Source: Candidatus Thorarchaeota archaeon (GTDB taxonomy: Archaea; Asgardarchaeota; Thorarchaeia; Thorarchaeales; Thorarchaeaceae). From it: a stretch of DNA of 33,293 nt. A model generated the notes under the pieces. That model was not told the origin of the DNA, did no database searches, and was given only the letters and a program-made list of their open reading frames with translations. The stretch covers positions 1-33,293 of the forward strand of contig JAEOUG010000052.1 of NCBI GenBank assembly GCA_016839445.1. Reading direction: 5' to 3'. This document shows positions 4,264 through 11,059 of this stretch, piece by piece. The translations under genes and the position numbers were made by a program. Numbering within the stretch: position 1 is the stretch's first letter; each line of letters begins with the position of its first letter.

Positions 4264-4509
4264 CTAGGCGGGTACGTAAATCCATTGCCTCATATCTTGA
4301 AGGCAGGGGACTCGCTTGATTAGCTGCTTCTTCAAGAGTTTCCTTAGAGCGTAACGAACAGTCCGAGGAGCAAAACTCACTTTGTCAAGCAGCTGCTTCG
4401 GCGTGACACCGCTGCCGCCGCTCTCCCTTAGAAGTGAGAGGACTATCATCTGGCTCTTCGTGAGGTTGGTGGACTCTGTTATTGTTTCCAATTCCTCTTC
4501 ACTCATCAT
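4264..4509 (-). CDS. Small winged-HTH DNA-binding protein (archaeal MarR/ArsR-like)
   Basis: 81 aa with PRTVRYALRKL recognition helix and QDMRQWIY wing; GGTGA RBS just upstream. Confidence 0.82.
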   Translation of the reverse strand: MMSEEELETITESTNLTKSQMIVLSLLRESGGSGVTPKQLLDKVSFAPRTVRYALRKLLKKQLIKRVPCLQDMRQWIYVPA

Positions 4510-4536
4510 CTAAATCACCAACTGTATAGTTAAGAG

Positions 4537-4568
4537 ATTTCAGAACTTGAATTTAAACATTTCGAACT
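4537..4568. promoter_or_regulatory. TATA-like TTTAAA (4552-4557) flanked by near-identical direct repeats ATTTCAGAACT and ATTTCGAACT
   Basis: Read directly in the AT-rich divergent intergenic region; the repeats start 22 bp apart. Confidence 0.45.
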
Positions 4569-4685
4569 AAAATAATTCGCTAATTTGAAAACGGACGACC
4601 GGATTCAGTTACATTCCGTGAACGTCCATGTTAGAAAGGTACAATTGGCAACTGCTGAACGTGAACCTGTGTGATCAGAGTGGAG

Positions 4686-5003
4686 ATGCCTGAGTGGCTT
4701 GCGGAGTGGATTTCCAAAGACAGACTTGTCGGCAGCAAGTTCAGGATAAGCAAGAGATACTTGAGGCAGTCAAAGAGAATTCAACAGATCAGCGTTGAGG
4801 AGTCAGAGGATGGCAGTCTGATTGCATCTCACTATGTTGTGCATTCGCCAAAGTATGGGAGATACAACGTCAGATTCGACAATGGAGTATACATATGCAA
4901 CTGCCCTTTCTTCAAGCACCGCAGAATCTGCAGTCACATTCTTGGTGTTAGTCAGAAGACGGGCGTCTGGCCGACCAAGGAGTCCATCTTCGACGAGTCC
5001 TAA
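4686..5003 (+). CDS. SWIM zinc-finger protein
   Basis: YNVRF...YICNCPFFKHRRICSHILGV matches CxC-x8-CxH. ATG at 4686 preferred; the ORF track starts at 4671. Confidence 0.88.
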   Translation: MPEWLAEWISKDRLVGSKFRISKRYLRQSKRIQQISVEESEDGSLIASHYVVHSPKYGRYNVRFDNGVYICNCPFFKHRRICSHILGVSQKTGVWPTKESIFDES

Positions 5004-5055
5004 GGCTAATATGTCCGCGTAACCTAGAGTCACCCTCGTCGAGCTGGTGAAGACT

Positions 5056-7026
5056 ATGGGACTCAAGGAGTCAATCGTTGATTACTTCGACCGCCATCCG
5101 AGGGCCAAGAAGGCACTCGGAGTGGCAACAGCCGTTGCTACAAACTTCGCCATGATTGGCTCTGGATCTGCAGTGCTTGCGGTCGCGGCGGGTTCCATTA
5201 CAAAGGCTCACGAAGACAATCAGAGAGTGAGACCCGACCAGTTGATGGACTTCTTCAAGGAGGCCATTCAAGACCCCGCAGTCCGAGACTCCATCAAAGA
5301 GGCTGTCAAAGAAGGCGGTTCTGAGGTGGCGGCACACGTATCGACTGCAATGAATCAGCTTGGGGCCTCCGAGCCACAGTCGGGCCAGTTCGTTGACACC
5401 ATGAAGTCAGACCTAGCCATTGTGATGCAGGATTTGGGCATCCTTCACGAAATGCTCTCCTACTACGAGGTCCCCGACTCAGCAGAACGCATCCGAAACG
5501 TGTGGAGGCTTCCACCATACCTTGACGACGTGCTTGTGATTGATGACGAGAGGCAGAGGTTCATTGACGCGGCTGTAGAGCATGCCAAGGGTGGAGAGAA
5601 CGTCGTTGTGCTTGGAGCACCAGGCTCAGGCAAGACGACCGCTATGTATGCAATACTCAGAGCTCTAGACCAAGACAACGACACCGGGCTGATATGGGAC
5701 ACGAAGGATGTTGCTAGAACTCACGAGAAGAACGGGATGATCCTCTTCTGCGACGACATCCCTGAATCAAGACAGCTCGCCAAAGCCATTGTAGAGAAGG
5801 ACATCAGGGGTGTCGTTTCGACCGCCAGAGAGCAGGACTGGTCTAGACTTCCTCTGGATCTTCGTCGGAAATTCTATGCACTGAACCTCCCTGCGATTCC
5901 GGACAATGTCATGACTGAGATATGTGAAAGACACCTCAAGAACTACGGTATCAAGTACGAGCAGGCAGTTCTTCCAATAATCGTGAAGAACGCTCAGGGG
6001 AGTCCCATCTACGTAAGGTACATGGCCGAAGAGCTTAGCTCCGAAGTGAAGGGGGGCAATCTCAAGAAACTTACTGCCAAAAGGGCGGAGGTCTCTCCCA
6101 GAGGGATGACAGATTACATCGCAGGAATCCTGGCGAGGATTCTCTTTGAGATGGATGGAACCGTATACACGCCGAGAGAGGGAGCACTCCCCGCGATCAA
6201 GGCGCTTCTGTGCCTGGCGGACAGGCCCAACTACGAAACACATGAAGTTCACTTGAACCAGATCTTCTTCGCGCTGAAGACTCCGTCAGATGGACCCGGC
6301 CCCTTCAATGCATTCAAGCAGTACCTCTCGAGGGACCCTCGGTACTCGTCATTCCGGTTCATGCATGACACCCTTGCAGATGTCCTCAGAGGTAAAGTGG
6401 ACCATCCTATCGTCGGGGACATCCGCATGATTGCTCAAGAGATGGGTGTTACAGGTAGGCGGGACGTACAGATCTCTGCGCTTGAACAGGGATGGGAGCA
6501 CGTGAAGGAGGAGTACGAACTCAACGAAGCCGGTGGATTAGACCTCGTCCTATCCTACGGCTACTTCGCTGTCAAGAACTTCGGTGCCGAACATGGTGAC
6601 ACCCTAGCCGTCGGACTTGCCAATCAACACCTTGAGAACCCTCTGAGCCAGGCTCTTCTCGCTGTCACTGGTCCTATGAAGGAGGGCGAGATGGAAGCGG
6701 CAAAGACTGCCACCAGGAAGAGAAGCAGGGGTACCACACGTGAAGTGAAGATGGGAAACGAAGGCAAGGCTACTGCACTGAACATAGGAGCGCTAATACA
6801 GGAGAAACTGGGCTCTGTCCTAGGGGAGAAGTTCGCCAAGGACATTCAGGAGGGGGTGAAGGACATCACAGGGAGTCTTGAAGGGGTCGAAGGAGTCCCC
6901 AACATTGATGAAGTGCTCAAGAACGCATTGAAGAGCGGAGACCTCAAGGACCTGAAAGAACTCAAGAAGCTCAATGAACTCCGCAAGATGCAGAAGAGAG
7001 AGAGGAAGAAGCCCAAGAAGGATTGA
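5056..7026 (+). CDS. STAND-class (NLR-like) P-loop NTPase
   Basis: Walker A GAPGSGKT (5614), Walker B ILFCDD (about 5750), sensor-1 VVSTAR, GxP motif GSPIYV (5998) and winged-helix FRFMHDTL (6361). ATG at 5056 follows a GGTGA RBS. Confidence 0.75.
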   Translation: MGLKESIVDYFDRHPRAKKALGVATAVATNFAMIGSGSAVLAVAAGSITKAHEDNQRVRPDQLMDFFKEAIQDPAVRDSIKEAVKEGGSEVAAHVSTAMNQLGASEPQSGQFVDTMKSDLAIVMQDLGILHEMLSYYEVPDSAERIRNVWRLPPYLDDVLVIDDERQRFIDAAVEHAKGGENVVVLGAPGSGKTTAMYAILRALDQDNDTGLIWDTKDVARTHEKNGMILFCDDIPESRQLAKAIVEKDIRGVVSTAREQDWSRLPLDLRRKFYALNLPAIPDNVMTEICERHLKNYGIKYEQAVLPIIVKNAQGSPIYVRYMAEELSSEVKGGNLKKLTAKRAEVSPRGMTDYIAGILARILFEMDGTVYTPREGALPAIKALLCLADRPNYETHEVHLNQIFFALKTPSDGPGPFNAFKQYLSRDPRYSSFRFMHDTLADVLRGKVDHPIVGDIRMIAQEMGVTGRRDVQISALEQGWEHVKEEYELNEAGGLDLVLSYGYFAVKNFGAEHGDTLAVGLANQHLENPLSQALLAVTGPMKEGEMEAAKTATRKRSRGTTREVKMGNEGKATALNIGALIQEKLGSVLGEKFAKDIQEGVKDITGSLEGVEGVPNIDEVLKNALKSGDLKDLKELKKLNELRKMQKRERKKPKKD

Positions 7027-7098: not shown

Positions 7099-7187
7099 CA
7101 CTTCAAGAGTTCGCGGCCGTAGTGATTCCTGTGGATTGGGGAGGATAGCGATGCTGCCCACTGGGCCATCGCAGGTTGAATCAGGTA

Positions 7188-7382
7188 TTGCCACACAAGA
7201 AAGGCCGTGGCGGCCAGAAGAAGATTCGAGTTCGTGAAGACGGAACCAGGATCTATCCTCGCAGGATGGTTCGCTGCACCGTGGGCATTGCTCCCAACTG
7301 CAAGGGTTGGGTCAACGCAAACACCATGCCCGTTCCCGGCATCTGCCGTCGTTGCTGGCAGGCCAAGAACTCACATGTGTAG
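7188..7382 (+). CDS. 64-aa very basic Cys4 (putative zinc-binding) microprotein
   Basis: MPHKKGRGGQKKIRVR...C-x7-C-x14-C-x2-C. Has its own TATA, AGGT before the TTG and a hairpin after the stop. Confidence 0.62.
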   Translation: MPHKKGRGGQKKIRVREDGTRIYPRRMVRCTVGIAPNCKGWVNANTMPVPGICRRCWQAKNSHV

Positions 7383-10650: not shown

Positions 10651-10798
10651 GGGAAAGACCTCTTGACGGTTCTCAGGGACACGAGAGCTTCGGTGTATTG
10701 AATGTTATGCCGGATGATGAATGTCCGCTCCGCGCTGAACCGGAACAGCAGGACTCAGGGCCATGGAAACTATAAGGGGGATTTCAGATAAGCGGAGC

Positions 10799-11059
10799 AT
10801 GGGAAGGAAGACGTACACTGACTGCCGTGGTTACCTCAGGTTCAAGGACTCAGGGAAGCTAGTCCACAGGTGGAAGGCAGAGAAGAAGCTCGGGCGGAAG
10901 CTTCTCCCAGGGGAGGTCGTGCACCACAAGAACAAGAGAAAGCTCGACAACCGACACTGCAACCTCGAGGTCTTTCCATCCAAGAAGGCACACTGGGCAA
11001 GACATGCGAATGACTCATGGTGGAAGACGAAGAAGCACAGAACTCGAAAGAAGTGGTAG
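10799..11059 (+). CDS. Free-standing small HNH endonuclease (HNH_3-like)
   Basis: GY...VHRWKAEKKLGR...VVHHKNKRKLDNRHCNL...H...H. TATAAG at 10771 fits a leaderless start at ATG 10799. Confidence 0.85.
   Translation: MGRKTYTDCRGYLRFKDSGKLVHRWKAEKKLGRKLLPGEVVHHKNKRKLDNRHCNLEVFPSKKAHWARHANDSWWKTKKHRTRKKW

Follow-up and report, generated by a model that had tools for sequence, protein, structure and literature searches.

A STAND-type NTPase on a Candidatus Thorarchaeota contig and its probably independent SWIM and wHTH neighbours

The DNA analysed here is contig JAEOUG010000052.1 of the Candidatus Thorarchaeota archaeon assembly GCA_016839445.1, taken over positions 1 to 33,293 of the forward strand (33,293 nucleotides, called the window below). 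Three neighbouring genes in it are the subject of this report: a small gene of winged helix-turn-helix (wHTH) type, a gene for a stand-alone SWIM zinc-finger protein that is read away from it across an AT-rich spacer, and a gene for a nucleoside triphosphatase (NTPase) with the motifs of STAND switch ATPases, which follows the SWIM gene on the same strand (Table 1). An earlier interpretation made from the DNA letters alone (the sequence-only reading) had joined the three into a proposed new module: a sensor or defence unit of two genes, SWIM and NTPase, under the control of the wHTH protein.

The layout on which that interpretation was built is sound. The list of open reading frames (ORFs), the start sites of orthologues and a count of base composition all agree with the three genes, their strands, the 656 amino acids (aa) of the NTPase, the 52-bp gap and the AT-rich spacer that had been described. 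The spacer has a G+C content of 36.6%, against 53.2% for the window, and 0.2% of all 161-base segments are equally AT-rich. Alignment to relatives places the start of the SWIM gene more likely at 4680 or 4686 than at the first GTG, giving a protein of about 105-107 aa. Orthologues of the NTPase open at (M/L)GLK, which corresponds here to the ATG at 5056 (gene 5056-7026); residue numbers are counted from this codon, and the gap between the two genes, both on the plus strand, covers 5004-5055. Most NTPase orthologues seem to start at TTG; in the window the start is ATG. The junction between SWIM and NTPase is bridged by a Logan contig of run X1 (1604 bases, window 4313-5915), which may be the sample from which the window was assembled, and by a Logan contig of run X4 from a separate study (420 bases, 4947-5366, zero differences). 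Further contigs from public runs bridge the junctions farther downstream: NTPase with catalase, catalase with carboxyltransferase, and carboxyltransferase with HNH. Since every junction between the wHTH gene at one end and the HNH gene at the other is bridged by contigs of runs from different studies, the gene order is real in the population and is no assembly artefact.

Table 1. Genes, domains and motifs of the wHTH-SWIM-NTPase locus, in window coordinates; conservation is that in an alignment of 66 NTPase sequences.
Feature	Position	Strand	Details
MarR-type wHTH gene	4264-4509	-	81-aa ORF
AT-rich divergent spacer, wHTH/SWIM	4510-4670	.	161 bp
SWIM ORF	4671-5003	+	110 aa counted from first GTG
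Stand-alone SWIM zinc-finger protein	4680-5003	+	CxCx8CxH; PF04434
Promoter-like box AAGGCTAATATGTC	5002-5015	+	begins within SWIM stop codon
NTPase ORF	5047-7026	+	659 aa counted from GTG
NTPase N-terminal all-helical domain, residues 1-135 (presumed output domain)	5056-5460	+	six helices (model)
Predicted STAND core, residues 139-560	5470-6735	+	nucleotide-binding domain, helical domain 1 (HD1), winged-helix domain, helical domain 2
Walker A, GAPGSGKT, residues 187-194	5614-5637	+	G187, G190, G192, K193 and T194 invariant
Walker B, ILFCDD, residues 229-234	5740-5757	+	D233 invariant, D234 in at least 90%
TAR motif with sensor-1 arginine, residues 256-258	5821-5829	+	R258 invariant, T256 in at least 90%; ends core strand 253-258
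GxP (GSP), residues 315-317	5998-6006	+	P317 invariant, G315 in at least 90%; within helical segment 283-346 (HD1)
MHD, residues 436-438 (FMHD 435-438)	6361-6369	+	H437 invariant, D438 in at least 90%; winged helix
Charged C-terminal tail, residues 561-656, Lys/Arg-rich end, with stop codon	6736-7026	+	predicted local distance difference test score (pLDDT) 41-74

The NTPase carries the full set of motifs expected of a STAND protein. The TAR tripeptide is of the TTR-like kind, the sensor-1 motif of STAND NTPases. In an AlphaFold2 model built from the 66-relative alignment (pLDDT 87.3), the MHD motif sits between a strand (432-434) and a helix (438-444), within a segment of mixed helix and strand (351-447). 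Structure comparison by VIA-align, scored by Z and the number of aligned residues, puts Apaf-1 first: entry 3shf matches model residues 139-559 with Z 16.6 over 337 residues, a stretch that takes in the winged helix as well as helical domain 2, and the MHD region aligns with the Apaf-1 winged helix inside this match. A second Apaf-1 entry (3sfz; Z 15.6, 345 residues), the NB-ARC domain of NRC1 (8bv0; Z 14.0, 269 residues) and a STAND protein (6mfv; Z 13.5, 297 residues) are also matched. Because the Apaf-1 alignment reaches past the AAA+ part, the NTPase is STAND-like in its winged-helix and second helical domains. At the level of sequence the family is small: 121 clusters in all were found at E <= 0.001 among 1.84 billion representatives, with residues 136-520 as their common core, and the named sources of the matches are Thorarchaeota, Promethearchaeota and Hodarchaeota. 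At the same threshold, nSTAND3 (PF20720) is matched by 57 of the 66 relatives (best E 2.5e-10) and NB-ARC by 4; nSTAND5 is matched by 28 and RuvB_N by 7. Distant relatives are fused to TPR, WD40/beta-propeller, HEAT, FGE-sulfatase, FHA and PKD/LVIVD domains.

Some of the search results tell against the STAND assignment and would suit an ordinary AAA+ motor of the RuvB, Clp or clamp-loader kind that has no STAND switch. First, RuvB is the top Foldseek match (E 2.9e-7), with SAMD9, Avs5 (EfAvs5, 9jap), NRC3 and NLRP2 lower. Second, the family profile searched against PDB sequences likewise ranks RuvB first (E 3.5e-8), and RuvB too has a nucleotide-binding domain, a lid and a winged helix. Third, the window NTPase itself falls below the Pfam cut-offs, at 24.4 bits (E 2.6e-5) against 27.2 for nSTAND3 and 26 against 34 for nSTAND5. 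The NACHT model gives 13.3 bits (cut-off 26.7), NB-ARC is not among its Pfam matches, and scans with PADLOC, NCBIfam and PHROGs return weak matches at the level of the P-loop. The extent of the structural match is what separates the two classes: Clp and RFC AAA+ proteins reach Z up to 14.8, but their alignments cover two domains (model 131-348, about 185-208 residues), as against 337 residues for Apaf-1. By VIA-align the overall fold therefore resembles solved STAND structures more closely than it does other AAA+ proteins, whereas Foldseek alone says RuvB. The invariance of the GxP proline and the MHD histidine, the predominance of nSTAND3 and nSTAND5 over RuvB_N among the relatives and the STAND-type repeat-domain fusions in the family also argue against a motor, which is extremely unlikely. 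Judged by its motifs and modelled fold, the protein is a genuine NLR/Apaf-1-type STAND switch ATPase, of a clade known mainly from Asgard archaea; here the sequence-only reading, which had recognised Walker A and B, sensor-1, GxP and FMHD and had proposed STAND helical and winged-helix domains, is upheld. Since the Pfam cut-off is missed, the NTPase is termed nSTAND3-like and is not filed as a member of that family.

The ends of the protein are more particular than its core. The N-terminal helical domain contains a Gly/Ala-rich hydrophobic hairpin at residues 22-51 that is highly conserved (mean hydropathy 1.2-1.6). At the other end, the window NTPase belongs to a short form of 650-677 aa, while most orthologues have about 950-1000 aa and carry some 300 extra helical residues C-terminally. 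A quick tree shows at least two origins of the short form, one in the clade of the window (P0001-P0003, support 100) and one in an eight-member clade nested in long forms. No remnant of the long-form C-terminal domain was found downstream in the window (the best match, E 0.17, lies elsewhere in it), and no repeat sensor or effector domain of the kinds common in the distant relatives was recognised in the window protein.

The SWIM protein has a different history. It passes the Pfam cut-off for PF04434 narrowly (20.3 bits against 19.6), and in an alignment of 41 sequences the four ligands of its finger (C73, C75, C84 and H86) never vary; 21 columns are invariant, and mean column identity is 55%. 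Its relatives form 69 clusters of 83-145 aa, typically about 108 aa and 50-80% identical, whose source names are all Asgard (Thor-, Hermod-, Hod- and Heimdallarchaeota). The finger is shared with other stand-alone SWIM proteins; the N-terminal half, with its nearly invariant PxW..W..KD.L..K pattern, is the family's own. Occurrence was surveyed in all 86 genomes of the host family and in 400 genomes of the phylum. In the latter, SWIM is present in 33 genomes, among them 10 of the 31 from family f5 and 10 of the 12 from family f27. No neighbouring gene is common to the SWIM loci across families (neighbours are shared among close kin), and neither a helicase nor any other linked partner was seen there. 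Among 31 candidates no fused longer form was found at E <= 0.001, which is weak evidence, and a PHROGs scan gave no match. The nearest look-alikes in the ESM Atlas are small SWIM proteins of bacteria and tailed phages (93-110 aa, score 0.93-0.94), which serve as a lead only. By these sequence comparisons the SWIM protein represents a separately distributed, highly conserved family of small Asgard proteins; it probably binds nucleic acid or protein.

The distribution of the two genes does not support a shared system. In the host family the NTPase is found in 24 genomes, SWIM in 12 and both in 3, against 3.3 expected if they were independent (the genomes are kin and not independent samples, so no statistical claim is attached to these counts). 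The two genes are adjacent in the window genome only: in G167 there is a SWIM fragment on a different contig, and in G203 the genes are separated by 608 kb and SWIM has a split reading frame. Seen from the NTPase, 23 other genome loci hold an orthologue, and for 19 of them 1 kb or more of the upstream DNA is available (L008, L066, L070 and L072, with too little, were left out). SWIM is present in none of these 19, nor in any of 9 metagenome loci, at least 4 of which repeat genome loci; the loci that lack it include six with short-form NTPases (L051, L052, L054 and L059-L061). Seen from SWIM, none of 32 matching loci (29 of them whole genes) in four families has a member of the NTPase family, searched with 207 queries, within about 1.5 kb, and the NTPase was not found in the sampled f5 and f27 genomes, where SWIM occurs. 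A literature search, as far as the text of the sources was accessible, returned no published SWIM-STAND pairing. Complex prediction for the two proteins gave a score of 0.00 in both runs; the controls did not fold, so the result is evidence neither way.

The NTPase gene also appears to have a promoter of its own. Its orthologues carry a common box, CCAAAGCTAATTAGTC, about 47-55 bases upstream of the start codon, and the AAGGCTAATATGTC of the window is equally spaced. The pattern AA(A/C)(G/C)CTA(A/T)TTAG occurs at the matching distance in 11 of 13 other upstream regions, and an extended box, CCAAA(G/C)CTA(A/T)TTAGTC, is seen upstream of orthologues in L003-L006, L050-L055 and L060. The box would act as an archaeal TFB-recognition (BRE)/TATA element. 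As it is kept directly after the SWIM stop codon, the NTPase most likely is transcribed from its own promoter.

These observations are best read as those of independent neighbours: SWIM and the wHTH gene would have been brought beside the NTPase by a local rearrangement in the window lineage, and the NTPase would be a self-contained STAND switch (probability roughly 60%). Two kinds of evidence pull the other way. The first is gene order. SWIM is followed directly by an HNH gene in G200 and G222, so is the NTPase in at least eight other genomes of the genus, and SWIM precedes the NTPase here; an ancestral order SWIM-NTPase-HNH with many subsequent losses is thus possible. The second comes from metagenomes. 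The longest contig is 11,912 bases for both the SWIM protein P0225 and the short-form NTPase P0005, and 6,195 bases for both P0226 (SWIM) and P0029 (short-form NTPase), so each pair may lie on a single contig. This hint of co-occurrence in the other short-form clade is countered by the six loci of that clade that have no SWIM gene. The idea of a two-gene unit for sensing or defence, in which SWIM would be the adaptor or trigger and the divergent wHTH gene the regulator, could draw on both kinds of evidence, on the shared strand and short gap with a junction confirmed in contigs from two studies, and on the loss of the ~300-residue C-terminal domain in the window clade, which leaves room for a sensor in trans. 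Chance-level co-occurrence, an adjacency repeated in no other locus read and the NTPase's own promoter-like box make it improbable, as does a SWIM family that is far more widespread and more conserved than the NTPase orthologues and whose neighbours vary by family; the lack of a fused SWIM form adds a little. The proposed linkage of SWIM and NTPase, and with it a new SWIM-STAND system, accordingly falls away. What stands is a further STAND family protein with chance neighbours, and follow-up effort on the pair can be spared.

The wHTH gene fares no better as a module regulator. It is a clear MarR match (PF01047, 32.4 bits against a cut-off of 24.6, E 8.4e-8), and homologues occur 2-3 kb from the NTPase in three metagenome loci, with further genes intervening: the one in L053, on the far side of the carboxyltransferase gene, has 72% identity, and those in L052 and L054 have 44-45%. 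None was found in the SWIM loci. The gene is a syntenic neighbour that has been moved next to SWIM by rearrangement and has no conserved relation to SWIM or to the NTPase.

Other genes of the locus record this rearrangement. Throughout the genus the NTPase lies in syntenic housekeeping surroundings: a carboxyltransferase, a small HNH_3 protein, an arsenite pump, an RNase HII-like protein and a biotin ligase. In relatives (L050, L053 and L012) the carboxyltransferase gene lies upstream of the NTPase in divergent orientation. In the window (segment 7589-10650) the NTPase is followed downstream first by a catalase gene, which has no counterpart in the related loci read, and then by the carboxyltransferase gene in convergent orientation. 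The changed position and orientation of the carboxyltransferase and the extra catalase indicate that the locus was rearranged in the window lineage, and contigs of several runs confirm the order. The HNH_3 gene (10763-11059, plus strand, 98 aa, PF13392 at 35.1 bits) is separated from the NTPase here by catalase and carboxyltransferase. It was considered as a partner of the NTPase and rejected: it is present in 40 of the 86 family genomes, including genomes of the genus that have no NTPase, and in most NTPase genomes outside the genus it lies elsewhere. Several HNH_3 copies have in-frame stops.

Among known systems, the nearest to the NTPase by sequence family is Avs5/nSTAND3; by fold it is Apaf-1/NB-ARC. 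The NTPase of Avs5 is an nSTAND3 domain according to the accessible part of the Avs5 preprint, and the family matches given above make the NTPase type alike. Avs5 (AVAST type 5: SIR2, nSTAND3 and helical repeats) is likewise a single-gene STAND protein, built of an output part at the N terminus, a switch in the centre and a helical part at the C terminus. The window NTPase differs from it in having neither SIR2 nor another known effector and no TPR/Sel1 repeats, in its archaeal (Asgard) sources and in its fixed housekeeping neighbourhood, which is not a defence island. Among Avs models, PADLOC matched Avs1b alone (E 0.0037 over 65 residues), and the NCBIfam Avs1b model reached 17.5 bits against a cut-off of 1500. 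Sequence identity to Apaf-1 and plant NB-ARC structures (3shf, 3sfz, 1z6t and 8bv0) is 12-14%, and the CARD, CC (coiled-coil), TIR, WD40 and LRR domains of those proteins are missing. The archaeal STAND-TPR type of PH0952 (6mfv) differs in its TPR repeats, which the window NTPase lacks, and the latter has a distinct N-terminal helical domain. The NTPase is set apart from Avs5 and Apaf-1 by this N-terminal domain and by having no known effector or repeat sensor.

What the switch is used for is a matter of weighing two roles. A role in conflict or defence is possible, at slightly less than even odds. The characterised proteins of this NTPase type, to the extent that the Avs5 source was accessible, are the antiphage Avs5 proteins. 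Occurrence is patchy: the 24 NTPase genomes make up a minor part of the host family, and several genomes of 95-99% completeness gave no match for the gene. Two further families of the phylum have more distant relatives (about 30-35% identity), up to six to a genome, with exchanged sensor domains. The multi-copy genomes, with three to six copies each, are G021, G051, G059, G078, G090 and G100 (families f17 and f20); some copies adjoin (two on G059:C236 and two nSTAND3-like genes in L037), their N- and C-terminal domains vary, and a few copies have in-frame stops. A Pfam scan around L037, which holds the nearest distant paralogue, gave another nSTAND3-like gene and an FG-GAP protein as neighbours and no informative partner.

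The alternative is a non-immune STAND regulator that would act in stress or metabolic signalling without killing the cell, either of the MalT/AfsR type or as an Apaf-like housekeeping switch. The NTPase is single-copy in its genome and holds a fixed syntenic place among carboxyltransferase, biotin ligase, RNase HII-like and arsenite pump genes. It is under purifying selection: in contigs of runs X1 and X3, strain differences in the gene comprise 19 synonymous and 5 non-synonymous changes. (All 24 cluster in a 520-base part of the gene, 5818-6339, residues 255-428; the flanking contigs are identical to the window.) At syntenic loci, orthologue identity is 58-73% for the NTPase, above the 47-53% of the RNase HII-like protein, with the carboxyltransferase at 81-90%. 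PADLOC, which had been suggested as a check on the defence idea, found nothing significant, and no known effector or sensor domain was found in the NTPase. The housekeeping neighbours and the PADLOC result together weaken the defence reading. Against a regulator stand the patchy occurrence, the Avs5 kinship and the multi-copy relatives with swapped sensors, and the NTPase has no DNA-binding output domain; a non-immune signalling role is on balance rather unlikely.

STAND proteins rest in an ADP-locked state, are released by a signal, oligomerise on binding ATP and act through an N-terminal output domain. By analogy, the NTPase would be ADP-bound at rest and its winged helix would be locked by the MHD histidine; a trigger perceived via its C-terminal part would free the lock, ATP binding would drive oligomerisation, and the clustered N-terminal domains would deliver the output. 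The Gly/Ala-rich hydrophobic hairpin allows the guess that this output acts on membranes, by associating with them or by damaging them. No relative of the N-terminal domain could be recognised (a search of the ESM Atlas with residues 1-135 gave no usable match), and together with the lack of a known effector or sensor domain this makes the output mechanism a guess; that it is targeted to the membrane is unlikely. Bolder still is the picture of an Asgard “resistosome”, in which the NTPase would oligomerise and its hairpin would enter the membrane as in plant CC-NLRs and fungal HeLo-NLRs, with the SWIM protein recruited as a trans sensor or adaptor where the C-terminal domain was lost. It would account for the adjacency in the window and for the possible joint presence of both genes on two metagenome contigs of the other short-form clade, and is very improbable.

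With the pair set aside, there remains, in the closest archaeal relatives of eukaryotes, a clade of NLR/Apaf-1-like switches that is well defined and uncharacterised, marked by a family-specific N-terminal domain and by two independent losses of the C-terminal domain. A membrane-attack output, if true, would bear on the age of NLR-type cell-death machinery. The small SWIM family (about 108 aa, conserved across Asgard lineages) is an unexplained conserved gene in its own right.

A further ORF may belong to the locus. Pfam and PHROGs returned no match for it and the fetched loci no homologue, but it encodes a Cys-rich, zinc-ribbon-like protein of 68 aa (Cx7C ... Cx2C) and lies at 7176-7382 on the plus strand, within the 562-base gap between the NTPase and catalase genes, where it is a candidate gene.

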